Positions 30,284-56,902 of a stretch of DNA of 64,000 nucleotides are shown here, piece after piece; position 1 is the first letter of the stretch; every line of letters begins with the position of its first letter. Position numbers and translations under genes: made by a program. Under the pieces are notes generated by a model, which was not told the origin of the DNA, ran no database searches, and saw only the letters and a list, made by a program, of their open reading frames with translations. This DNA comes from Myxococcales bacterium (GTDB lineage Bacteria > Myxococcota_A > Polyangia > Polyangiales > DASUME01), in the NCBI GenBank assembly GCA_047601445.1, contig JASGJH010000001.1, positions 8,736,001 through 8,800,000 on the forward strand, read 5' to 3'.

Positions 30284-31296
30284 GCTCCGCCCAGCAGGCG
30301 TGTGAGCTCGTTGGAGCGATAGAAGGGCGCGAGCACGGCGCGCACGCGCTCTTCCATGAAACCCGTGTCGTCGGCCTTGGCCAGGAGCGGTCCCAGGAAG
30401 GTCTCGAGCTCGGATTTCACCATCTGCTCGGTGACGCCCATGTCTTCGATCAAGGCGAGCACGCTGCCCTCGCCGTACTTGTCGAAGAACAGCCCCACCA
30501 GCTCGCCCATGATCTCGTGGAAGTAGGGCGTCTTGCGGAAGCGCAGCCAGAACTCGTAGCAAATCACCACGAAGTCCTCGATGTCGCGCGCGCCCACGAA
30601 GTTGAACGCCTCGGCCAGGCGCAGCGTCGAGAGCGCGTCCCATGCCTCGTCTGCCACGCTGCGTAGGGCGTCCTGGTCCACCACGTCGGTGAGATGACGC
30701 TGGGCATCGCGCACGATGCGGGCGCGGTGCTTCTCGATGTAGCGCCCCAAGAACTCCTCCACCTGGCGCTCCACCTCGGGCAGCACGCCCGCGAGCAGAC
30801 CCGAGGTGAGCTCGGACAGGCGCGCAGAGCGCGGCTCGGCGCGGGTGCGATCGCTGCGAAAGAGTAGGTCGAGCAGGCCGTGGGAGAGGATGCGCGAGGC
30901 AATGGAGGCGAAGGCGTTGCTGTTGGCAGCCATGGAGATGACTTCCTGGCGCACCGACTCGAGGGCCAGGAGCTTCTCGGTGAACTCCTCGTAGGTCGTA
31001 CGGCCCAGGATTTGACTCAGGGTGACGTCGGCACTGGCGGGCGACTGCACCACGCCGCGAGCCATTTCTCCGGCCAACTCCGTGATACCGCCGCTGACCC
31101 GCAGCTCGATCACCATGCGCTCGATCACACCGATGACCTGGTCGCGCGTGGCCAGATCGTTGAGGGGCACGTCCGCCAGCCACGCCATGGTCGCCCCGAT
31201 GTGCTCGTCGATCAGGCGCCTGAGTCCATCCCCGCGCAGGCGCGCGAGCTCGAACTTGACGTGGGCCTCGAGCAGGGTCTCTGCGAGCTCGTTCAT
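30259..31296 (-). CDS. Hypothetical all-helical protein co-transcribed with TetR
   Basis: ATGA overlap with TetR; native-like codon usage. Confidence 0.7.
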   Translation of the reverse strand: MNELAETLLEAHVKFELARLRGDGLRRLIDEHIGATMAWLADVPLNDLATRDQVIGVIERMVIELRVSGGITELAGEMARGVVQSPASADVTLSQILGRTTYEEFTEKLLALESVRQEVISMAANSNAFASIASRILSHGLLDLLFRSDRTRAEPRSARLSELTSGLLAGVLPEVERQVEEFLGRYIEKHRARIVRDAQRHLTDVVDQDALRSVADEAWDALSTLRLAEAFNFVGARDIEDFVVICYEFWLRFRKTPYFHEIMGELVGLFFDKYGEGSVLALIEDMGVTEQMVKSELETFLGPLLAKADDTGFMEERVRAVLAPFYRSNELTRLLGGAQPQSTSA

Positions 31297-31889
31297 GGAG
31301 CGCTCTCCTTACGAGCTTTGAGCTGGGCGGCCAGTCGTTGCAAGGCCTGGCTGCGCAGCTCGCTGCGCGCTGGTTCGGCCTCGGCGCCTTCCATCTCCAG
31401 CAATCGATTGAGTTCGTCCAGCAGCACCACCACGGCGGCGTGCGCTTGCCAGGGCTCGCAGCTGCAGGCGCCCTGCAGCGTCTGCGCGAGCACGTCGAGC
31501 TTTTGCCGCAGCCCAGCCCGGAAGTTGGCAAAGGCCCCGGCCTGCTCGGCCAGCACGAAGCGCACGAGCTCGCGATCCTGGGCCACGGCCTGGAACGCTG
31601 CGCTCACCAGGGCCTCCGGCACCCCCTGCCCGCCGCCGGCAGCCTCCTTCACGGCCTGCTCCAGCTGGGCGAGCGTGGGCACCACGAACTCGTTGATGAT
31701 GGCCCGGCCCAGCTCGTCCATGTCCGCGAAGTGCCGGTAGAACGAGGTCGGGGCGATGCCGGCCTCACGGGCCACTTCGCGCAGCCCCAGGCTCGAGAAA
31801 CCGTGGGCGGCGGCGACCTGCAGGGTGGCTCGCAACAGGGCGTGCCGGACCCGCTCCTTCTCTTCCTTCTTCTCGGGTGACGCGCGCAA
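31293..31889 (-). CDS. TetR-family regulator, FabR/DesT-like
   Basis: HTH LGLREVAREAGIAPTSFYRHFADMDELG; TTG start with GGAGG RBS; divergent from a desaturase. Confidence 0.85.
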   Translation of the reverse strand: MRASPEKKEEKERVRHALLRATLQVAAAHGFSSLGLREVAREAGIAPTSFYRHFADMDELGRAIINEFVVPTLAQLEQAVKEAAGGGQGVPEALVSAAFQAVAQDRELVRFVLAEQAGAFANFRAGLRQKLDVLAQTLQGACSCEPWQAHAAVVVLLDELNRLLEMEGAEAEPARSELRSQALQRLAAQLKARKESAP

Positions 31890-31937
31890 GGGCTGGGACC
31901 TCCAGAGTCGGCGCGGACATTACACCAGAATGCTTGT

Positions 31938-31967
31938 CAGGAACACATGTGCGCACACTTGTGCCGC
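31938..31967. promoter_or_regulatory. Two overlapping FabR/DesT-like operator boxes
   Basis: CAGGAACACATGTGCGCA and TGCGCACACTTGTGCCGC share the ACA-N2-TGT core with flanking GCG/CGC of FabR-type palindromes. Confidence 0.6.
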
Positions 31968-32170
31968 GCGATCGCGGGCGCTTTTTCACGATTCGGTCAC
32001 AAGATCGCGCCCGCGAGGTCGCAACTACCCGAATCGAGAAAGAAAACGTTGTCAGGGGTTTGTTCAGGCGCGCCGTGGCCGCTAAAGTCGCGGCGCCTTT
32101 TGGCCGAACCCTCTTCCAAAACGTGACGCGCGAGTGCCTCGCGCGAGCAAAACAAGGCTCCTCCATCAGC

Positions 32171-32974
32171 ATGAAGTCGTCTCGCGGGAAGATCCTTCGC
32201 TACACCATCGACCGCTTCACGGTCTTTTGGGTACTCCTCTTCTTCAGCGTCCAGCTGACGATCTGGTATTTCGCGCCGCCGTGGCTCGCCGCCGTGCTCG
32301 CGTTGCCGCTGTACTTCGCGTCCATGATGTCGGCGTGCATCCACCACAATCACCAGCACGTGAATGTGTTCCGGAAGTCCTGGCTCAACCGCGTCTTCGA
32401 GCTGCCGCTCACCATGCAGACGGGCGTCGGGCCGTACACCTGGGTGCTCCACCACAACCTTGGTCATCACCTGAACTATCTCGAGCAGCGTGACTACGAG
32501 AAGGGTGTCGACGAGTCGCGCTGGCTGCGCAAGAGCGGCGACAAGATGGGGCGCCTCGAGTATTCGGCGTTCCTGTTCGTGAAGCACCACTTCGACGTGT
32601 ACCAGGTCGGCAAGAAGCACCCGCGCATCTATCGCAACTACCTGCTCATGCGCATCCCGCTGTACACGGTGTTGGCGGTCTTGTTCTGGCTCAACCCGGC
32701 CAACACGCTGATCCTGTTCCTGGCGTTGCCCCTGGCCACGCTGTTCCACACCTGTGCGGCCACCTACGAGCACCACTCGGGGCTCGAGACCAAGGATCAC
32801 CTGCTGGCGAGCCGCAACAACACCAACAGGTTCTACAACATCCTCGCGCAGAACCTCGGCTATCACACGGCCCATCACACGCGTCCTGGCCTGCACTGGT
32901 CCGAGCTGCCGGCCTTCCACGAGCAGATCGTGGCGAGCATTCCGGCCGGCCAAATCAAGACCACGTTCTTCTGA
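32171..32974 (+). CDS. Membrane fatty acid desaturase
   Basis: His boxes HHNHQH, HHNLGHH, HTAHH. Confidence 0.88.
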   Translation: MKSSRGKILRYTIDRFTVFWVLLFFSVQLTIWYFAPPWLAAVLALPLYFASMMSACIHHNHQHVNVFRKSWLNRVFELPLTMQTGVGPYTWVLHHNLGHHLNYLEQRDYEKGVDESRWLRKSGDKMGRLEYSAFLFVKHHFDVYQVGKKHPRIYRNYLLMRIPLYTVLAVLFWLNPANTLILFLALPLATLFHTCAATYEHHSGLETKDHLLASRNNTNRFYNILAQNLGYHTAHHTRPGLHWSELPAFHEQIVASIPAGQIKTTFF

Positions 32975-32982
32975 GTTCGCGG

Positions 32983-33858
32983 GTGGGCAGCGACCAGGCA
33001 GTCGAGCTCACGGAGCTCCTCGGACGTACGGTGACGCTCTACGTGCAGCGTCTCGGCGCGCCAGGGGCGTTTTGCTCCTTGTCACGCGAGGCCAAGCCGA
33101 GTGACCCGTCGGTGCTCTTGCCGCGCAACGAGCTCGACGAGTACGTCCATGAGGGCGACGCGCTGGAAGCCTTCGTGTACCTCGACTCCGAGGACCGTCC
33201 GGTGGCGACCCTGGCGGAGCCGAAGCTCGAGCTCGGGCAGGTGGCCTTCCTCGAGGTGCGCGACGTCAATCGCTTTGGGGCGTTCGTGGACTGGGGCCTG
33301 CCCAAGCAACTTTTGGTACCGTTCAAGGAGCAGATCCGGGAGCTGGCACCGGGGGACTGGGAGCCCATCGCGCTCGACGTCGATCGCACGGGGCGCCTGG
33401 TAGGCACGATGCGCGTGCGAGAGTTCCTGGAGGACGGCGGCGCGTTCGAGCGCAATGAGTGGGTGCCGGGCGAGGCCTGGCGCTTCGAGCCGGCGATCGG
33501 GCTGTTCGTGATCATCGAGCGGCGCTACGTGGGCTTGTTGCCTGCCCACGAGCGACACGGGTTGAAGCGCGGGGAGCAGGCGCAGTTTCGCGTCTCCCAC
33601 GTGCAGCCAGACGGCAAGGTCGAGCTCTCGCTGCGCGGCTTGGGGCATGAAGAGCGGGCGAGCGACGGCGAGAAGATTCTGGCCAAGCTCAGGGCCGGCA
33701 AGGCGCCCGGACTTTCCGATCGCACCAGTCCCGAGGAGATCGACGCCCTGTTCGGGCTCAGCAAGAAGGCCTTCAAGCGGGCGATGGGCGGGCTGCTCAA
33801 GGAGGGCAGTGTGACCTTCGATCGCGACGGCTGCTTCGTGGTGCGCGAGAAGAAGTGA
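32983..33858 (+). CDS. cvfB: CvfB-family S1 RNA-binding protein
   Basis: YLDSEDR, GAFVDWGLPK, FGLSKKAFKRA winged helix. Confidence 0.9.
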   Translation: MGSDQAVELTELLGRTVTLYVQRLGAPGAFCSLSREAKPSDPSVLLPRNELDEYVHEGDALEAFVYLDSEDRPVATLAEPKLELGQVAFLEVRDVNRFGAFVDWGLPKQLLVPFKEQIRELAPGDWEPIALDVDRTGRLVGTMRVREFLEDGGAFERNEWVPGEAWRFEPAIGLFVIIERRYVGLLPAHERHGLKRGEQAQFRVSHVQPDGKVELSLRGLGHEERASDGEKILAKLRAGKAPGLSDRTSPEEIDALFGLSKKAFKRAMGGLLKEGSVTFDRDGCFVVREKK

Positions 33859-33887
33859 TGCGGGGCGAGGGCTGAACAGCCCGCGCG

Positions 33888-35255
33888 TCACTCGAGAAGG
33901 CCGGCGTTCAGTGCGGCGGCGGCCCTGACCTGCGCCTCGAGGGTGGTGGTGCTGGCTTGGATGACGTTCGCCGATTCGTTGAAGGCATCGGGCGCACAGG
34001 TGCCGAGCTTGAACTTGGCGACGGGTGTGGTGGCGCTGCTCATGAAGGCGTCGAGGGCACCCTGGAAGGCACCTTTGGCGGCGGAGCCGAGGTCGGCACC
34101 CGCGTCGATGATGAGCTTGGATTTCTGAAAGGCGGCCAGGATGTTGGGTAGACGCGCCTTGAGCGCCTGCACGTAGTACTTCCCTTGCTCCTGGGCAGGT
34201 GCGTCGGCGCTTGCCATGAAGGTGATGTCGACCTCGAGCGACGGCGGGGTGCACTCGACCTTCAAGCTGGCGTCGGCCTTGGTCTGCGCGTCGCAGCTCG
34301 CGCTGGCGTTGCACCCAGCCATGGTCATGCAGGCCGGCGGCTTGAAGTCGCCTTCGCACTTGCCCTTGCACGTGACGAAAGCCATCGCGTTGCCTTCGCA
34401 CTTGGCGGTGGCGTCGGCCGTGCAGGAGACCATGGGTCCGGAGACCGTGCACGCGCCGCTGCAGGTGCCGCTGCAGTCCGCGCCGACGTCACTCTCAATC
34501 GTGCAGCTGCCCTGACACATGCCGGTGCACTTACCCTGGCAAGTGCCTCCGTTCTGGGTGCCTTCGCAACCGCCGGAGCAGGTGCCATCGCAGGTGCCGC
34601 CACACGCGGCGTTCACATTGCCGGTTAGTGTGCAGGTGCCGGTGCACTCGCCGGTGCAGGCCACGGAAGGTCCCTTGGTGGTACAGGACGCGGTCGCGCC
34701 TGCTTCGCACGTCACCATGGCGCTGGCTTCGACCTCACAGCCACCCTTGCACTCGAAGGAGGCCGTGCCGGGATCGCAGCTGGCGTCGACCTCACAGCCT
34801 GCTTGGGCCTTGCAGTAAGCGCTGGCTTCGAAGCTGGCGTGGGCGTCGACCTCGCACCTGGCGGGCTCGGCCTTGACCTTGATGCTGGCCTGGGCGCTCG
34901 TGGTGAGCTTGGCCTTGATGGCGCCAGCGAGGCCGCCGCCCGAGGTGAGGTCTGCGGCCGTGATGCCGAAATCCGTCTCGAGGCCCTTGAGTTCGGTATC
35001 GATGCGGCGGGTGAGCGCGTCCGCGGTGGTCTCGAAGTCGAGTGCGGCCTTGAAGAACGCGTCCACCGAAGCGACGCCAGTGATTCCAGCTTGTCCCTTC
35101 GCAACGCTGGCCTCGCACGAGAAATCGCTGCTGCAGTGATCCGTGATGACCTCGGGTGAGTCCCCGCATCCCGCGTGTGCGAAGATACTCAAGGCACCTG
35201 CCAAAACGTTCGCGCCGAAGAGCACACGAGCTCTGGAGTTCACTCGTCGAAACAT
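33888..35255 (-). CDS. Cys-ladder lipoprotein, paralog A (455 aa)
   Basis: GGAGG RBS; lipobox HAGC30; 30-Cys central block with mirrored spacing. Confidence 0.85.
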   Translation of the reverse strand: MFRRVNSRARVLFGANVLAGALSIFAHAGCGDSPEVITDHCSSDFSCEASVAKGQAGITGVASVDAFFKAALDFETTADALTRRIDTELKGLETDFGITAADLTSGGGLAGAIKAKLTTSAQASIKVKAEPARCEVDAHASFEASAYCKAQAGCEVDASCDPGTASFECKGGCEVEASAMVTCEAGATASCTTKGPSVACTGECTGTCTLTGNVNAACGGTCDGTCSGGCEGTQNGGTCQGKCTGMCQGSCTIESDVGADCSGTCSGACTVSGPMVSCTADATAKCEGNAMAFVTCKGKCEGDFKPPACMTMAGCNASASCDAQTKADASLKVECTPPSLEVDITFMASADAPAQEQGKYYVQALKARLPNILAAFQKSKLIIDAGADLGSAAKGAFQGALDAFMSSATTPVAKFKLGTCAPDAFNESANVIQASTTTLEAQVRAAAALNAGLLE

Positions 35256-35271
35256 CGCTCAGCCTCCAACC

Positions 35272-35309
35272 AAAAGCAAAACGGCCGGAGGCTTGTGCCG
35301 CCGGCCGTT
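35272..35309 (-). terminator. Intrinsic terminator after paralog B
   Basis: Minus strand AACGGCCGGCGGC-ACAA-GCCTCCGGCCGTT followed by TTGCTTTT. Confidence 0.75.
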
Positions 35310-35333
35310 CATCCATGTGAATGCGAGGAGCGA

Positions 35334-36701
35334 TCAGCTGCCGATGAGTTCGGTGCTGAAGGCGCCAGCGGCCGTGACCTGAGCCTTCAGGTCGGCGGTG
35401 GCGCTCTGAATCTCGGTGGCCGACTCCTTGAAGGCGTCGGGGCCGCAGTGGATGAGCTTGTACTTGGCCACGGGGCTAACATCTCCCGACCCGAACGCGT
35501 CGATGGCACCCTGGAAGGCGCCGCTGGCGGTGGCGCCGAGGTCGGCACCGGCGTCGACGATGAGCTCGGACTTCTTGAGGGAGGCGAGGAGCTTGGGCAG
35601 ACGCGCCTTGAGCGCCTGCACGTAGAACTGCCCCTGCGCCTGTGCGGTGGCGTCGGCGCTCGCCATGAAGGCGATGTCGACCTCGATCGAGGGCGGCGTG
35701 CACTCGACCTTCAGGCTGGCGTCGGCCTTGGCCTGGGCGTCGCAGCTCGCGCTGGCGTCACACTTGGCCATGGCCATGCAGCTGGGCGGCTCGAAGTCGC
35801 CTTCGCACTTGCCCTTGCACATGACGGAAGCCATCGCGTTGCCTTCGCACTTGGCGGTGGCGTCGGCCGAGCAAGCGACCATGGGGCCGGAGACCGTGCA
35901 CTCACCGCTGCAGGTACCGTTGCACTGTGCTCCGACATCGCTGTCGATTTTGCAGCTGCCCTGACACATGCCGGTGCACTTGCCCTGGCAGGTGCCGCCC
36001 TTCTGGGTGCCTTCGCAGCCGCCGGAGCAGGTGCCGTCGCAGGTACCGCCGCAGGTGGCGTTCACGTTGCCGGAGAGCGTGCAGGTGCCTTTGCACTCGG
36101 CAGTGCAGGCCACGGAGGGGCCCTTGGTGGTGCACGAAGCGGTGGCGCCCGCTTCGCAGGTCACCATGGCGCTGGCTTCGACCTCGCAGCCACCCTTGCA
36201 CTCGAAGGAAGCCATGCCGGGATCGCAGCTGGCGTCGACCTGACAGTTTGCCTCGGCCTTGCACTGGGCGCTGGCTTCGAAGCTGGCGTGGGCGTCGACC
36301 TCGCACTTGGCGGGCTCGGCCTTCACCTTGATGCTGGCCTTGGCGCTCGCGGTGAGCTTGGCCTTGATGGCGCCGGCGAGGCCGCCACCGGTGGTGAGCT
36401 CGGCAGGCGTGATGCCGAAGTCAGCCTGCAGGCCCTTCAGCTCGGCGTCGATGCCACCGGCGAGCGTGTCGGCGGTGGTCTTGAAGTCGAGGGTCGCCTT
36501 GAAGAACGCGTCCACCGACGAGATGCCGGTCACCGCGAAGCCGCCCTTGGCGACGCTCTCGGTGCAGTCGAGACCGCAGATCTCCAGGCCCTTGGAGACC
36601 GGATTTTCATCGCAGCCGGGGGTCGTCAACAGGGCCGCGCCGGCCACCATGATGCCAGCGGCGCTGAGGGCACCGTAAAGTCGTGTCCTATCGAGCTTCA
36701 T
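35334..36701 (-). CDS. Cys-ladder lipoprotein, paralog B (455 aa)
   Basis: Lipobox TPGC30; same Cys pattern as A and C. Confidence 0.85.
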   Translation of the reverse strand: MKLDRTRLYGALSAAGIMVAGAALLTTPGCDENPVSKGLEICGLDCTESVAKGGFAVTGISSVDAFFKATLDFKTTADTLAGGIDAELKGLQADFGITPAELTTGGGLAGAIKAKLTASAKASIKVKAEPAKCEVDAHASFEASAQCKAEANCQVDASCDPGMASFECKGGCEVEASAMVTCEAGATASCTTKGPSVACTAECKGTCTLSGNVNATCGGTCDGTCSGGCEGTQKGGTCQGKCTGMCQGSCKIDSDVGAQCNGTCSGECTVSGPMVACSADATAKCEGNAMASVMCKGKCEGDFEPPSCMAMAKCDASASCDAQAKADASLKVECTPPSIEVDIAFMASADATAQAQGQFYVQALKARLPKLLASLKKSELIVDAGADLGATASGAFQGAIDAFGSGDVSPVAKYKLIHCGPDAFKESATEIQSATADLKAQVTAAGAFSTELIGS

Positions 36702-36927
36702 GAAATCACCTCTGCAGAATGTGGAAGTACGGTGGGCTTGTTCATTGCGGCGAAGCCGGTGTTGGCGCCGACCGCGGACGTGGGCACGGCCTGTCGCCGC
36801 ACATCATGGCCCCTTTGGGATGCTTGGGGCCGCATCATACACATCTCGGGCCGCGACGCAGCGCGGACGTGGGAGCTTCACCCGAGTCGGGGTGGTTCGC
36901 GCGCGCCCGCGTGAGTTCCCCTGAATT

Positions 36928-36966
36928 AAAAGCAAAACGGCCGGAGGCTTTGCGCCGCCGACCGTT
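36928..36966 (-). terminator. Intrinsic terminator after paralog C (near-copy of 35272-35309)
   Basis: Same hairpin and T tail; about 65 nt of 3' UTR duplicated. Confidence 0.75.
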
Positions 36967-36990
36967 CATCCGTGTGAATGCGAGGAGCGA

Positions 36991-38358
36991 TCAGCCGCCG
37001 ATGAGGTCGGTGCTGAAGGCGCCAGCGGCCGTGACCTGAGCCTGCAGGTCGGCGGTGGCGTTCTGGATCTCGGTGGCCGACTCCTTGAAGGCGTCGGGCG
37101 CGCAGGTGCCGAGCTTGAACTTGGCCACAGCGCTGACATCGCCGGAGGAGAAGGCGTCGAGGGCGCCCTGGAAGGCACCGCTGGCGGTGGCGCCGAGGTC
37201 GGCACCAGCGTCGATGATGAGCTCGGACTTCTTGAGGGCCGCGAGGAGCTTGGGCAGACGCGCCTTGAGCGACTGCACGTAGAACTCACCCTGGGCCTTG
37301 GCGGTGGCGTCGGCGCTCGCCATGAAGGCGATGTCGACCTCGAGCGAGGGCGGCGTGCACTCGACCTTCAGGCTGGCGTCGGCCTTGGCCTGGGCGTCGC
37401 AGCTCGCGCTGGCCTTGCAGTCGGCCATGGCCATGCAGCTGGGCGGCTCGAAGTCGCCTTCGCACTTGCCCTTGCACATGACGGAAGCCATCGCGTTGCC
37501 TTCGCACTTGGCGGTGGCGTCGGCCGTGCAGGAGACCATGGGTCCGGAGACCTTGCACTCGCCGCTGCAGCTGCCGTTGCACTGCGCGCCGACATCGCTG
37601 TCGATCTTGCAGGTGCCCTGACACATGCCGGTGCACTTGCCCTGGCAGGTGCCGCCGTTCTGGGTGCCTTCGCAGCCGCCGGAGCAGGTGCCTTCGCAGG
37701 TACCGCCGCAGGTGGCGTTCACGTTGCCCATGAGCGTGCAGGTGCCGGTGCACTCACCGGTGCAGGCCACGGACGGGCCCTTGGTGGTGCAGGAGGCGGT
37801 GGCGCCTGCTTCGCAGGTCACCATGGCGCTGGCCTCGACCTCGCAGCCACCCTTGCACTCGAAGGAAGCCATGCCGGGATCGCAGCTGGCGTCGACCTGA
37901 CAGTGTGCCTCGGCCTTGCACTGGGCGCTGGCCTCGAAGCTGGCGTGGGCGTCGACCTCGCACTTGGCGGGCTCGGCCTTGACCTTGATGCTGGCCTTGG
38001 CGCTCGCGGTGAGCTTGGCCTTGATGGCGCCGGCGAGGCCGCCACCGGTGGTGAGCTCGGCAGGCGTGATGCCGAAGTCAGCCTGCAGGCCCTTGAGCTC
38101 GGCGTCGATGCCGCCCGCGAGCGTGTCGGCGGTGGTCTTGAAGTCGACCGTGGCCTTGAAGAACGCGTCCACCGAGGAGATGCCCGTCACCGAGAACTGG
38201 CCCTTGGCCACGCTCTGGCTGCAGTCGAGACCGCACGCCTTGAGGCCCTGGTCGAGCGGCGAATCTTCGCAACCGGGCGCGGCCAGGAGGGTCACACCAC
38301 CGATGGTCAGGGCGACGGCGCTAAGAATGCCGCCAAGTTGTTTCGTACCTAGCTTCAT
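36991..38358 (-). CDS. Cys-ladder lipoprotein, paralog C (455 aa)
   Basis: GGGGAG RBS; lipobox APGC30; same Cys pattern. Confidence 0.85.
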   Translation of the reverse strand: MKLGTKQLGGILSAVALTIGGVTLLAAPGCEDSPLDQGLKACGLDCSQSVAKGQFSVTGISSVDAFFKATVDFKTTADTLAGGIDAELKGLQADFGITPAELTTGGGLAGAIKAKLTASAKASIKVKAEPAKCEVDAHASFEASAQCKAEAHCQVDASCDPGMASFECKGGCEVEASAMVTCEAGATASCTTKGPSVACTGECTGTCTLMGNVNATCGGTCEGTCSGGCEGTQNGGTCQGKCTGMCQGTCKIDSDVGAQCNGSCSGECKVSGPMVSCTADATAKCEGNAMASVMCKGKCEGDFEPPSCMAMADCKASASCDAQAKADASLKVECTPPSLEVDIAFMASADATAKAQGEFYVQSLKARLPKLLAALKKSELIIDAGADLGATASGAFQGALDAFSSGDVSAVAKFKLGTCAPDAFKESATEIQNATADLQAQVTAAGAFSTDLIGG

Positions 38359-38749
38359 GTATCTCCCCTTGTCTTCTGCCTACGTTTGGAGGCGTTCCTT
38401 AAGTCGCGTCTGAACTCGAAGCAGCGTGTGCTTGGTTCTAGGTGTCAACGAGACCGAAGCCCCCGGTCGACCGGGCGCGACGGTAGCACGCAGCAATCAG
38501 CTTTCGTCGAGAAAAGAGCCAAAAAGAGCGGTGTGAGGAATGCGTTTCAAGCGCATGGCGCGCACATGCACGGCCGCGACGCGGGGCCTGCACCATCGCT
38601 TCACTGGGGACTGATTTAACCTTTGTCGCGTCAAGCTCGCCCCGAACACCACTCGCCGCGGCACAGATTCCCGAGGCCCCGTCCTTCTTACAGGCCATGC
38701 TGCAAAGCCGGTTCGTCATCTGCTGTCGGACAAGGTACGGTTGGCTCCC

Positions 38750-39007
38750 ATGATCGAGCCCAGTGAAATCGAACAACTGTTAAGGGCTGCTTTTCCAGAC
38801 GCCGCGGTGCTCGAGATCGAGGACCTGACGGGGACCAAGGATCACTACCAGGCCACCATCGTCAGCGGCAAATTTCAGGGCCTCACGCGCGTGGCCCAGC
38901 ACCAGGCCGTGTATCGCGCTCTCGGCGATCTCATGAAAGGCCCGATCCACGCGCTGGCGCTGAACACCTACACGCCCGAGGCCTACGCCAAAAAGCGCCT
39001 CACTTGA
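38750..39007 (+). CDS. bolA: BolA/IbaG-family protein
   Basis: DHYQATIVSGKFQG..RVAQHQAVY...IHALAL. Confidence 0.9.
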   Translation: MIEPSEIEQLLRAAFPDAAVLEIEDLTGTKDHYQATIVSGKFQGLTRVAQHQAVYRALGDLMKGPIHALALNTYTPEAYAKKRLT

Positions 39008-39035
39008 GCGCGGTGTCCGCGTTGACTCTAACGTC

Positions 39036-40151
39036 TCAGCGCTTTGACCGCGGGCGCACGCGATCCACGTTGCCACCGCCGCTGTCGCGCACCGAGTAGG
39101 AGCCGTCCACGGCGGGTTCCCTGAGCTTCTGCTCCGGCTGTTTGGCCTGGGCGTCGACTACCGTCTCGCGCGCGAAGCGCTGCGGGTCCTTGGGGGCGCT
39201 TGGTTGCGCGTTCAACTGGTGCAAAGTGACACGGTCGCGGCCCGCTCCCTTGCTCTCGTAGAGGGACGCATCGGCCCCGGCGACGAGATCGGCGGGAGAG
39301 CGGTACTGCAGTTCCTTCGTCAGGAGCGCCACGCCGATGCTGGCAGTGACTTGAAGGCTGCGTCCGGCCACCTGCACCGACGTCTGTGCGATGCGCGCGC
39401 GTAGACGCTCGGCCAGGACCTGAGCACCGCTCGCATCGCTGCCGCGGGCGATCACGGCGAACTCCTCGCCGCCATAGCGCGCCGCCACGTCCTCCGCGCG
39501 CAGGCTCTCCACCAGCACTTTCGCGGTGGCACCCAACACAGCGTCGCCGGCGGCGTGCCCGTAGCCGTCGTTGACCTTCTTGAAGTGATCGAGGTCGATC
39601 AGCATCACGGCCAGCACTCCACCGTGGCGCTTCACGAAGGCGTATTCGGCCTGCATGCGGTCGTCGAAATAGCCGCGATTGTAGAGGCCCGTCAGCCGAT
39701 CTCGCACCGCCGCTTCGTACATCGAGCGCGTGAGCTCCAGCTCCTCTGCATCGTGCAAAGCAAAGCGCAACACCACGCTGCCGAGCGTGATGAGCTCTCC
39801 GCTCTTGAGGCGATGGCGCGCGGTCAGTCGCTGGCCCTCCACGAAGGTGCCATTGCGGCTCTCGAGATCGGTGACCGCGAGTGTGTCGCCCTCGCGATCG
39901 AAGCGTGCGTGCGTGCGCGAGAGGCTGGGATCCTCGATGCGCAAATCGGCCTCGAGGCCACGCCCGATCACCGCGTGCGAGCCCTCCACCGTGAGCACTT
40001 CGCCGGCGTGGGGACCCTTCACCACCAGGAGTGCGAGCGCGCTGCGCTTGGAGCGGGCACCGATCGGTACGGTGATCTCCTGCGTTACGTCATCGCTGCT
40101 GGTCCGGGAACTTCGCCCCGACAAGGTCTCGATCACTTTCTGCGATCGCAT
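39036..40151 (-). CDS. FHA-GGDEF diguanylate cyclase
   Basis: FHA motifs IGR, SRTHA, DLESRNGT; I-site RAED; RYGGEEF. Confidence 0.9.
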   Translation of the reverse strand: MRSQKVIETLSGRSSRTSSDDVTQEITVPIGARSKRSALALLVVKGPHAGEVLTVEGSHAVIGRGLEADLRIEDPSLSRTHARFDREGDTLAVTDLESRNGTFVEGQRLTARHRLKSGELITLGSVVLRFALHDAEELELTRSMYEAAVRDRLTGLYNRGYFDDRMQAEYAFVKRHGGVLAVMLIDLDHFKKVNDGYGHAAGDAVLGATAKVLVESLRAEDVAARYGGEEFAVIARGSDASGAQVLAERLRARIAQTSVQVAGRSLQVTASIGVALLTKELQYRSPADLVAGADASLYESKGAGRDRVTLHQLNAQPSAPKDPQRFARETVVDAQAKQPEQKLREPAVDGSYSVRDSGGGNVDRVRPRSKR

Positions 40152-54748: not shown

Positions 54749-54895
54749 CCCGTCTCGGCCTTCCCGAGGCTCAAAAACAAGCGCAAACAAAATGGCCTCT
54801 TCAAGGATGAATCTTTGGAGGGTTATCCTGCCTTTTCCCGTCGTGCTTTGCTGGCGGGCGGACCCGCCCGCTTCGACCGAGATCCCGGAGTTGCC

Positions 54896-56902
54896 ATGAA
54901 CACGTCGCCCAACCGCGCCATCTCCAACGGTGCATTTCAGGCCTTCGGACGCAGCTGGGCGCGCTCGCTATTGCTAGGCATCTGTCTGCTCGCTGCCTGT
55001 TCGGGCAAGGAACAGAAAGGTGCTCAGCATGGCAACGGCGATGCAGGCGCGCTGACCGGCAACGATGGCGGCGGGGACGGCGATGGCAACGGCGACGGTG
55101 ATGGAGACGGCCAGGGCGATGGCGACGGAACCGGCGACGGTGACGCAGGCTCGGGCCACAAGGGCCCCATGTCGTGTTCACCCATCACGTGCGAAGCCAA
55201 GGGCTATTCGTGCGGCCTGGTCGAAGATGGTTGTGGCGGCGTGTTGCCCTGCGGCCCCTGCAAGGACAACAAGGTCTGTTCGCCCGATACCCATCAGTGC
55301 GTGGAGCCGGTTTCGCTCTGCATGATGCGCGAGTGCGGCGCCGCCATCGACGCCTGCAACGATCCCGTCGCCTGCGGCGGCTCCTGCGGGGCGGGCGAGA
55401 TCTGCAAGGGCGGCGAGTGTCAGGCCTGCGTTCCACGTGAGTGCAACAAGGACGGTCTATGCGGCGACGTGTCCGACGGTTGCGGCGCCACGCTGCACTG
55501 TCCTGGCTGCGGCGACGGAATGGCCTGCGATCGAATCATTCATCAGTGCGCCGCCTGCGAGCCCACCACCTGTCTCGGCGAGGGTGTCGAGTGCGGCACC
55601 ATTAGCGACGGCTGCGGCAAGACCCTGGATTGCAAGGCCTGCACTGCCGACAAGATGTGCTTGAGCGGCAAGTGCGTGCCCAAGGCGCTTCCGGCCGAGT
55701 GCACCGCGCAAGGCGCCAACTGCGGCGACATCCTCCATGCCTGCACGGGCGCCAAGCTCAACTGCGGCAAGTGCGTGGAAGGCGAGATCTGCTCGAACAA
55801 CGTGTGCAAGAGCTGCGTGCCCACCAGCTGCGACGAGAAGAGCGCGGTGTGCGGCGACATCGACGATGGCTGCGGAGGCAAGCTGCACTGCGGTGACTGC
55901 GATGATGCCAAGGACGAGGTGTGCAACCGCGGCAGTTGCTGCGTGCCCAAGACCTGCGAGCAGCTCGGCAAGAACTGCGGCGACAACGTCGATGACGGCT
56001 GCGGCGGCAAACTGCACTGCGGCGACTGCGACCCGCTGAAGAACCAGTTCTGCGGCTACAAGACCTCACCCAACGTCTGCGGCACTTGCATCCCCACCAC
56101 CACCTGCGCCGACGCGGGCGAGCAGTGCGGCCGGCTCTTCGACGGCTGCAAGGACGTCAATTGCGGCGACTGCGACGCCGGTGAGGGATGCGACAATGGT
56201 GGAACAGCCAACATCTGCGTGCAGTGCCCCACCTGCGCGTCAATCGCCGCGGACAACGGCGGCAAGCAGGCCTGTGGTCCTCACAAGGGCGTTTGCGGCG
56301 ACCTGAACTGCGGCGATTGCTTGGCCTCCAATGAGAGGTGCGGTGCCGGTGGAACCGCTGGTATCTGCGACGTTTGCGTGCCCGACCCCAACGCCTGCGC
56401 TGGCAAGAACTGCGGCACGGTCTGGAACGGCTGCGACAACGTGACCTGCTCGCCTAACAGCTGCGGCGCGGGCGAGACCTGTGGCGCCAATGGAGTCGCC
56501 AACGTGTGCGGCGTGTGCTCGCCCACCACCAGCTGCCAGGCCCAGGGTAAGACCTGCGGCACGGTCTGGAACGGCTGCGTGAACGAGCAGTGTGCCGGCT
56601 GCAAGGCGGGCGAGAAGTGCATTGCGAACGGCACCCAGTGCTGCAAGCCCGACAGTTGCTCTGCTCACGCCGGTCAGTGCGGAGACATCGACGATGGTTG
56701 CGGTGGCACCTTGCACTGCGGCTGCCCGTCGCAGTCCCAGAGCTGCTTCAACGGTAGCTGCTGCGTGCGCCGCACCTGCCAGGAGATTGCCAACCAGATC
56801 GGCGGCAACGATCCCGTGGTCGGCTGTGTGGACGGCGACCAGCAGAACTTCATCGAGTGCGGCGAGATCGTGCAGTGCGAGTTGTGCCTCGATCTCCAGT
56901 GA
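54896..56902 (+). CDS. Cys-rich repeat lipoprotein (about 12 CxPxxC..CG..DGCG..LxC units)
   Basis: LAAC lipobox, GDGDG linker, ~42-aa repeats with 7-8 Cys each. Confidence 0.8.
   Translation: MNTSPNRAISNGAFQAFGRSWARSLLLGICLLAACSGKEQKGAQHGNGDAGALTGNDGGGDGDGNGDGDGDGQGDGDGTGDGDAGSGHKGPMSCSPITCEAKGYSCGLVEDGCGGVLPCGPCKDNKVCSPDTHQCVEPVSLCMMRECGAAIDACNDPVACGGSCGAGEICKGGECQACVPRECNKDGLCGDVSDGCGATLHCPGCGDGMACDRIIHQCAACEPTTCLGEGVECGTISDGCGKTLDCKACTADKMCLSGKCVPKALPAECTAQGANCGDILHACTGAKLNCGKCVEGEICSNNVCKSCVPTSCDEKSAVCGDIDDGCGGKLHCGDCDDAKDEVCNRGSCCVPKTCEQLGKNCGDNVDDGCGGKLHCGDCDPLKNQFCGYKTSPNVCGTCIPTTTCADAGEQCGRLFDGCKDVNCGDCDAGEGCDNGGTANICVQCPTCASIAADNGGKQACGPHKGVCGDLNCGDCLASNERCGAGGTAGICDVCVPDPNACAGKNCGTVWNGCDNVTCSPNSCGAGETCGANGVANVCGVCSPTTSCQAQGKTCGTVWNGCVNEQCAGCKAGEKCIANGTQCCKPDSCSAHAGQCGDIDDGCGGTLHCGCPSQSQSCFNGSCCVRRTCQEIANQIGGNDPVVGCVDGDQQNFIECGEIVQCELCLDLQ
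55070..55146. repeat. Gly-Asp (GGCGAC-type) low-complexity repeat
   Basis: Encodes GDGDGNGDGDGDGQGDGDGTGDGDA. Confidence 0.75.

Follow-up and report, generated by a model that had tools for sequence, protein, structure and literature searches.

Nested disulfide bonds across an antiparallel hairpin are found in theta-defensins, protegrin and tachyplesin, which are flat ribbons with 2–3 bonds in 16–18 residues. The cysteine-rich domain of DnaJ, which is cytoplasmic, likewise has nested, mirror-arranged cysteine motifs on a long hairpin, in the form of CxxCxGxG zinc sites. Three tandem genes in a 64,000-nucleotide stretch of a Myxococcales bacterium genome (contig JASGJH010000001.1 of assembly GCA_047601445.1, positions 8,736,001 to 8,800,000 of the forward strand; the whole stretch is called the window below) encode lipoproteins that differ from both – they are exported, their cysteines occur singly and in CxGxC motifs, and in their family a helical lipoprotein base would carry as many as 22 nested bonds. 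In each of the three, 30 consecutive cysteines are spaced as an exact mirror. The architecture is real and conserved and the fold is probably new; its function we infer.

The cysteine mirror and its conservation

The three paralogs (A, B and C) have 76–87% identity to one another. Their features, in window coordinates, are:

36991..38358, minus strand: paralog C, a 455-aa lipoprotein precursor with lipobox LAAPG/C30, which leads the tandem trio
35334..36701, minus strand: paralog B, 455 aa, 87% identity to C
33888..35255, minus strand: paralog A, 455 aa, 76% identity to C
37357..37962, minus strand: mirror Cys ladder of C (C133–C334), comprising the end of a neck strand, an antiparallel helix pair (137–150/317–330), a linker and the beta stalk
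35700..36305, minus strand: mirror Cys ladder of B, from Cys spacing
34251..34856, minus strand: mirror Cys ladder of A, from Cys spacing
37462..37857, minus strand: beta stalk of C (C168–C299), a proposed double-stranded antiparallel beta-helix with 11 putative lumen-crossing disulfides
37645..37674, minus strand: tip loop of C (C229–C238), 3–19 residues long among homologues
38233..38235, minus strand: Cys42 of C, an odd non-ladder cysteine and candidate for an inter-subunit disulfide
36929..36966, minus strand: terminator-like hairpin and T run after C, from a sequence scan
35272..35309, minus strand: terminator-like hairpin after B, nearly identical to the one after C and copied along with the gene; read from the sequence and absent from the scan output

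Each paralog has 34 cysteines – the lipobox Cys30, C42, C46, C419 and the block of 30. The gaps between the 30 consecutive cysteines are 13,5,5,8,3,9,7,8,3,3,9,3,3,3, then 8, then the same series reversed, and in paralog C the two positions of every mirror pair sum to 467. Shuffling each paralog's gap list 20,000 times produced palindromes of at most 15, compared to 29 observed. The first-pass annotation had described this mirror, and its gaps and nucleotide coordinates were reproduced for all three paralogs. It had also stated that the residues between the cysteines are not mirrored, but they are so in part: 27 of the 86 non-Cys positions are identical to their mirror positions, mostly as G, A or V (shuffled mean 8.1, maximum 19 in 5000). 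A palindrome at the DNA level or an assembly artefact was ruled out, since the block has 26% identity to its own reverse complement and 31% to its own reverse, and hundreds of independent homologues exist.

The 368 sequences gathered included 47, fragments or divergent, that lacked both outer anchors; without these, 312 unique ladders remained in the subfamily of the window proteins (subfamily 1). The number of cysteines was even in 306 of these, and 223 were exact mirrors, across 48 arm patterns. Arm lengths ranged from 76 to 136 residues, with a correlation of r=0.957 between the two arms. Random pairing of arms, a shuffle that ignores kinship, gave 19.9 matches on average and never more than 35, compared to the 223 observed. 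Kinship was controlled for with a tree built on the non-ladder columns of 293 rows, which yielded 87 independent contrasting pairs. An exactly mirrored change was found in 39 of the pairs – 22 in Cys number, with both members exact mirrors, and 17 with identical spacing in both arms. Changes fell in overlapping slots in 16 pairs, in different slots in 6, and in a single arm only in 9 (shifts of 1–3 residues). The other 17 pairs differed in Cys number without both being exact mirrors, and are uninformative because the ladder-splitting rule itself forces equal Cys numbers per arm. Homologues thus keep the mirror through paired insertions and deletions, as expected of nested pairing. One-armed changes, which the first-pass annotation had taken to speak against such pairing, do occur, in the 9 pairs noted above, set against 39 with exactly mirrored changes.

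Cysteine pairs are gained or lost jointly (C153/C314 in about one-third of sequences, C159/C308 in 3%). A second subfamily, with its own Cys pattern and 119 ladders after one fragment was dropped, had 108 exact mirrors and 11 with one mismatch. Distant members had 12–14 ladder cysteines, with 12 in the short members L105 and L111, or just 4, mirrored and on the same base, and a fourth paralog, distant in the host genome (G000:C1:2583628-2585037), has a different but exact 28-Cys mirror. Across the family the ladder holds 4–44 cysteines, roughly a tenfold range of length with a constant base, and it differs in length between paralogs within one genome. As the mirror is retained at 4–44 cysteines on one base, the stalk can be described as a telescoping insert. 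These sequence comparisons indicate that the mirror is under selection.

Some members have further features of their own. Two loci (L108:1601-2752, plus strand; L109:4709-5593, minus strand) encode stalkless proteins with a helix pair, a 16-residue loop and 4 ladder cysteines. In 9 of 306 ladders – L001:8629-10038 (minus strand) and 8 homologues, including the fourth paralog – the tip loop has the pattern Dx[DN]x[DN]G...E, which is EF-hand-like and makes the loop a possible calcium site. The last 20 residues of 103 of the 119 subfamily-2 proteins (L085, L075, L105-L111, P0267-P0386) form a tail of alternating V and S, found in 2 of 214 proteins of the window's subfamily; the tail could be a donated or added strand. 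Extra N-terminal domains or tandem units are present in P0170, P0174, P0239, P0252, P0263, P0262 and P0264. P0262 has an FGE-sulfatase domain, P0264 consists of two whole units in tandem, and by eye P0170 and P0174 have what we presume to be a ZU5-like domain. Such members indicate that the base does not have to lie right at the membrane.

Probable disulfide bonds and the shape of the stalk

The ladder cysteines are very probably oxidized and bonded in nested order, with about 15 bonds in each window protein. Cross-strand disulfides of this kind had been proposed at the outset, and are supported indirectly by Cys pairs that co-vary across the arms and by oxidase genes next to relatives. A co-oriented gene for a VKOR-DsbA fusion was found in 15 of 71 related loci (Polyangiales and Nannocystales records), with Pfam confirmation in 3 of the 15. 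It is adjacent to the ladder gene in 14 of these, within about 350 nt in the 13 that were measured and by coordinates in one (L042); at L039 it sits between two paralogs. Five further adjacent cases were read from coordinates (G318, G327, G349, G369, G407). The 15 loci, L024:2422-3543, L039:7288-8559 and 13 more, hold the 3,3,3,5 ladder type in 11 cases. The fusion is possibly a dedicated oxidase for the ladder family. No other conserved functional partner was accepted, as recurrent neighbours tracked lineage. The facing neighbour of the fourth paralog is a thioredoxin-fold gene without CxxC.

An AlphaFold2 (AF2) model of the monomer had a mean predicted local distance difference test score (pLDDT) of 82.5 and a predicted template modelling score (pTM) of 0.68. 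It has long helices from both termini, neck strands at 122–136/333–345, the helix pair at 137–150/317–330 and beta structure at 166–304, with a tip turn at 235–236 that was interpreted as register +4. The stalk modelled alone gave the same strand pattern (pLDDT 72). The model bears out the earlier proposal of a helical base formed by the N- and C-terminal segments.

Residue couplings were calculated by mean-field direct-coupling analysis (DCA) and pseudolikelihood DCA (plmDCA) on Cys-to-Cys anchored rows (160 in subfamily 1, 109 in subfamily 2), and the two methods agree. With offsets given as i+j relative to the Cys register, cross-arm couplings support antiparallel pairing of the arms, and in both subfamilies they fall in three registers: +4/+6, 0 and −6/−8. 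For non-Cys pairs in subfamily 1, the plmDCA mean z was 1.16 at +4, 1.05 at 0, 0.70 at −6 and 0.80 at −8, over a far-off background of about 0 in which 8 of 1965 pairs had z above 3. The corresponding values in subfamily 2 were 1.10, 0.79, 0.89 and 0.78. The neck of the same protein, a flat ribbon used as a control, had one peak, 2.63 at 0. Cross-arm pairs made up 41 of the top 50 in subfamily 1: 7 lay no more than 2 from the Cys register, 11 between +3 and +9, 15 between −3 and −12 and the other 8 outside these bands (which have background shares of 7, 9 and 13%). The 34 top cross-arm pairs of subfamily 2 were divided 7, 8 and 10 among the bands, with 9 elsewhere. Misalignment by a CxxxC unit was rejected as the origin of the +4 and −6 signals, since they recur with Cys-anchored rows.

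Offset-0 pairs are often small or hydrophobic (197–270, 176–291), and the +4 and −6 pairs are mainly polar (204–267, 169–302, 222–239). Positions on the Cys side are 93% G, A, V or L (45%, 30%, 11% and 7%), and those on the non-Cys side are mainly E, S, T, K and D. Two strand registers 10–12 apart with the Cys register between them argue for a two-stranded antiparallel helix. In a toy geometry with registers +4 and −6, the Cys partner lies across the tube at about equal height, and a rise of 0.84–1.03 Å per residue gives C168–C229 a span of ca. 5–6.5 nm. On these models, the stalk is likely to be coiled into a tube. The first-pass annotation had envisaged an extended hairpin of up to ca. 30 nm, which is probably wrong – two strand registers flanking the Cys register are impossible in a flat ribbon.

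Assembly, location and rival explanations

A homo-oligomer, raised in the first-pass annotation, was predicted as a two-fold homodimer: two copies of residues 36–455 scored 0.64, while the best control scored 0.00. Among solved structures, 20 of 30 homodimers and 1 of 23 monomers reached the mark set for a dimer; these figures are only approximate for our own alignment. Contact agreement between runs was at least 86%, and the pLDDT of the partner was at least 79. The contacts are two-fold symmetric (68-68', 72-72'), with residues 327–337 lying on the partner's helices. Stalk-stalk contacts at 193–196, 204–208, 255 and 263–267 follow the −6/+4 order and form a contiguous patch in the coiled model. 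Cys42 lies in the predicted interface, at residues 41-43 and 42-43. Three non-ladder cysteines follow the lipobox in 147 of 179 subfamily-1 proteins, an odd number, and four do so in 94 of 102 subfamily-2 proteins. C46 would bond with C419, and a C42–C42' bond between subunits is possible. From the modelling, a homodimer is probable.

A lipobox-like signal (a hydrophobic stretch ending in [GAS]-Cys, by a simple rule) was found in 179 of 198 full-length homologues, in agreement with the lipoprotein assignment first made. In M. xanthus, Lys at +2 marks inner-membrane lipoproteins and Ala at +7 is an extracellular-matrix signal (PMC3222651). Lys at +2 is present in 1 of the 179 homologues, and Ala at +7 in 27. 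The near absence of Lys at +2 points to outer-membrane lipoproteins, if the M. xanthus rule carries over, and we regard this location as quite probable.

Two loci (L119:3123-4148, plus strand; L120:3458-4354, minus strand) encode another secreted family, which lacks the helical base and in which the ladder is nearly a mirror: 11 gaps match exactly on either side of the turn. The tail of these proteins is MYXO-CTERM-like (L120 scores 15.9 bits, short of the cut-off of 20), and the stalk module appears to be re-used there on another anchor.

These results can be brought together in one explanation, which we consider, as a whole, moderately probable. The exported lipoprotein would be one large nested hairpin. 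Near the lipid anchor, its N- and C-terminal parts would make up a long bundle of helices; next would come a flat two-stranded neck and then a disulfide-linked helix pair. In the central 130 residues, both arms would intertwine as an antiparallel double-stranded beta-helix of ca. 10–12 residues per turn (locally up to ca. 17), ca. 1 nm across the backbone and 5–6.5 nm long. Cys, Gly, Ala and Val would face the lumen, with each Cys bonded across it to its mirror partner, so any insertion would have to be matched in both arms. The bonds would be formed by periplasmic enzymes of the DsbA/VKOR type. Two subunits would stand side by side through base and neck, perhaps locked by C42–C42', as a rigid, two-horned, lipid-anchored unit. 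Modules added at the tip would set the horn length. The role proposed is structural: the protein would be abundant in the outer membrane and form a surface coat or spike for contact with surfaces, kin or prey. The idea that such a coat stands in for an absent LPS layer in Sorangium was considered and set aside as speculative. A surface-facing coat or spike is ranked first among the roles, ahead of a periplasmic strut and a polymer or pore, though from sequence its chance falls just short of even. The related mirror ladder on a MYXO-CTERM-like tail, EF-hand-like tips, tandem expansion and a polar, acidic surface are the reasons to favour a rigid, exposed horn. The fullest claim is more tentative still: an extensible, cystine-cored antiparallel double-stranded beta-helix as a new fold, forming the horn of a two-horned dimer in a major Polyangia surface coat, re-used without the base in MYXO-CTERM-like proteins, and with its own oxidase in some lineages.

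Several points weigh against this explanation. 89 of the 312 subfamily-1 ladders are not exact mirrors. There is no oxidase gene beside the window trio and no close VKOR-DsbA orthologue in the host genome. Register +4 permits a shifted CxxxC pairing (C221–C250, C225–C246, C229–C242), which would free C217 and C238. The coupling signal is modest, with 130 and 84 effective sequences in the two subfamilies, and some of the top cross-arm pairs (8 of 41 and 9 of 34) lie outside all three bands. AF2, ESMFold2 and the couplings are not independent, as their alignments overlap. A round toy tube has 10–11 Å between paired C-alphas, and flattening would be required for a disulfide. Coupling support for the dimer interface is weak, as its 22 pairs have a mean z of 0.68 and just 1 of them is above 3, and C42–C42' is not among the best listed contact pairs. 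Variability at the tip is only slightly higher than elsewhere, which gives no hint of a hypervariable receptor.

If the cysteines instead bound metal in nested four-Cys sites, as in the zinc finger of DnaJ, mirror symmetry would also result, and the CxGxC runs would suit such sites. This is very improbable: the protein is exported, its cysteines change as single pairs and not in fours, many are isolated singles or triples, CxxC spacing accounts for 11 of 8278 gaps, His content is 0.35%, and disulfide-oxidase genes adjoin relatives. With so few gaps equal to 2, membership in the DnaJ-type zinc fingers, which have CxxCxGxG motifs, was rejected. A straight two-stranded ribbon with cross-strand disulfides, up to ca. 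30 nm long, would account for the exact nested mirror, the mostly even Cys spacing and the couplings at offset 0. It is unlikely to be correct, as couplings in two subfamilies peak most strongly at +4 and again at −6/−8, while the flat neck has only 0; in addition, a face of G, A, V and C would be exposed, and the predicted dimer patch unites residues 193–208 and 255–267. By our estimate, isolated Cys pairs in a ribbon hydrogen-bonded at +4 would be ca. 13 Å out of register.

The couplings are blind to the difference between contacts within and between chains, which would allow the second register to lie between subunits, with several hairpins wound into a barrel, pore or filament of many strands. 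A polymer would be in keeping with the tandem paralogs and the codon bias, flagellin has a similar architecture of paired terminal helices and a projecting centre, and the alternating tail of 103 of 119 subfamily-2 proteins could be a donated strand. Such an assembly is nonetheless quite unlikely. The predicted dimer, with two copies modelled, shows a small stalk-stalk patch and no arm-long strand pairing, a single chain reaches a pLDDT of 80–90 over most of the stalk, the outward residues are polar and acidic, unlike those of a membrane barrel, and the window's subfamily is nearly without the tail (2 of 214). Membership in the flagellin/FliD family, which uses type III export and has no signal peptide, was rejected, given the lipobox signal and the lack of a Pfam match. 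The same coiled fold might also face the periplasm, as a strut or tether between the membranes or to peptidoglycan. Most outer-membrane lipoproteins face the periplasm, Ala at +7 is found in just 27 of 179 homologues, and the family is retained in small genomes (2.7–3.3 Mb). This option has a minor chance. The periplasm-spanning strut listed in the first-pass annotation, if of fixed length, is disfavoured by a roughly tenfold variation in ladder length on a constant base. That ladders have 4–44 cysteines, and differ among the paralogs of a single genome, speaks against a ruler; a profile scan of the window proteins found no peptidoglycan-binding domain; and the mirror ladder of L119 and L120 stands without the base on its MYXO-CTERM-like tail, at 15.9 bits with a cut-off of 20.

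Genomic context, range and comparison with known systems

Paralog A starts with a GGAGG site and ATG directly downstream of the hairpin after B. No Rfam match was found at 33700–39200, and no sigma-70-type promoter. On a codon score relative to 8 motif-picked reference genes, C and B rank at the 99.9th and 98.8th percentiles of 6419 ORFs, a hint of high expression; A and the fourth paralog are at the 78th and 48th, despite similar make-up. The six flanking genes scanned encode CvfB-like, desaturase, GGDEF, patatin, CAAX protease and TPR proteins. The fatty-acid desaturase gene (31293–32974) is at the 0th codon percentile for the genome, and adjoins an ORF that is TetR-like by eye. A 717-codon ORF at 54749–56899 (plus strand) has a lipobox-like start and ca. 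100 cysteines in short repeats. Elsewhere in the host genome, at least five ORFs have terminal periodic C-x3-C-x5 repeats with a 10-residue period (G000:C1:3999258-4000121, 7189687-7190472, 3023134-3024519, 9079606-9081039, 816214-816900), four of them with a lipobox-like start and DAG-rich linkers; their apparent palindromes are due to this periodicity.

In a sample of the phylum, 41 of 301 genomes had family members, just one of them outside the class. In a sample of the class, a group of soil and water bacteria, 68 of 121 genomes had them, patchily by taxonomic family, and in the order of the host, 30 of 48 did, with 14 of the misses in one genus. Genomes of 2.7–3.3 Mb are among those that keep the family. 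Named records are mainly Polyangiales, Nannocystales or unresolved myxobacterial bins, and include Enhygromyxa salina and Nannocystaceae. As only one sampled genome outside the class had members, work on Myxococcus would probably have missed the family. Members of ten clusters are labelled "hypothetical protein", carry an uninformative label or are nameless, and a search for longer forms gave 1 match.

The first-pass annotation knew of no characterised family with this architecture, and none was found in profile, fold, sequence and literature searches. No curated family in Pfam or NCBIfam scored above cut-off for the window proteins, fold searches gave nothing clear, whether for a cupin or jelly-roll match over the domain or for a match of the helical bundle to ClyA-type alpha pore-forming proteins, and PDB sequences and the Atlas gave no named relative. 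A description of the family was not found in the literature searched, which was mainly at abstract level and outside supplements (proteome tables, for example) and most subscription journals.

Bactofilin (PF04519) shares an x-G-x corner pattern with these proteins, and matches the N-terminal arm of the window proteins at 15.5–23.4 bits, relative to a cut-off of 27.9. Homologue P0111 reaches 32.3 bits, with no stretch passing alone. Bactofilin is a cytoplasmic single-stranded beta-helix polymer without Cys or a signal peptide, and membership was rejected, as the window proteins fall below cut-off and have a lipobox export signal. PF27846 (tSAM_targ_Cxxx_rpt) is precomputed on many homologues, and no NCBIfam match was found for the window proteins. 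This model, which presumably corresponds to TIGR04114 and covers putative modified-peptide targets, has CxxxC runs in common with the present family of 285–830 aa lipoproteins. No radical-SAM gene is among the six flanking genes of the window, the neighbours at other loci having been partly scanned. From sequence, both labels reflect the CxGx pattern.

Myxococcus TraA is likewise a Cys-rich myxobacterial envelope protein, with Cys-rich repeats proposed to form a rigid surface stalk; it has a PA14 head, direct TIGR04201 repeats and MYXO-CTERM (PMC3325183). Profile scans found none of these three in the window proteins. For the proposed coat, the closest analogy in the way of working is to Borrelia OspC/Vsp and trypanosome VSG, though no sequence likeness to these coats was found. 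They are lipid-anchored helical homodimers encoded by paralogous genes, and have no cystine tube.

If the explanation is true, this is a simple, repeatable new fold, a thin rigid rod with its length set by matched modules in both arms. The natural series of 4–44 cysteines on one base would be of use as a scaffold, and with as many as 22 nested bonds it would serve to test oxidative folding. A further implication is that many Polyangia have an envelope protein that is unstudied and probably abundant. The modelled fold would join features that are found separately in jelly rolls, gramicidin, antifreeze solenoids and cystine-ladder peptides. The double-stranded beta-helix or jelly roll of cupins and capsid proteins is likewise a coiled beta-hairpin, in which antiparallel strands far apart in sequence alternate. 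Cupins form short, broad sandwiches that contain a cavity, while the proposed tube is narrow, has 5–6 turns, is filled with cystine and grows by tip modules. The antiparallel double helix of gramicidin A also has two antiparallel strands in one tube with two hydrogen-bond registers, but it is a D/L peptide that lacks disulfides and points all its side chains outward. The Tenebrio antifreeze beta-solenoid has the same ca. 12 residues per turn and a lumen-crossing disulfide in each turn; it is single-stranded and parallel, with direct repeats, local bonds and no mirror.

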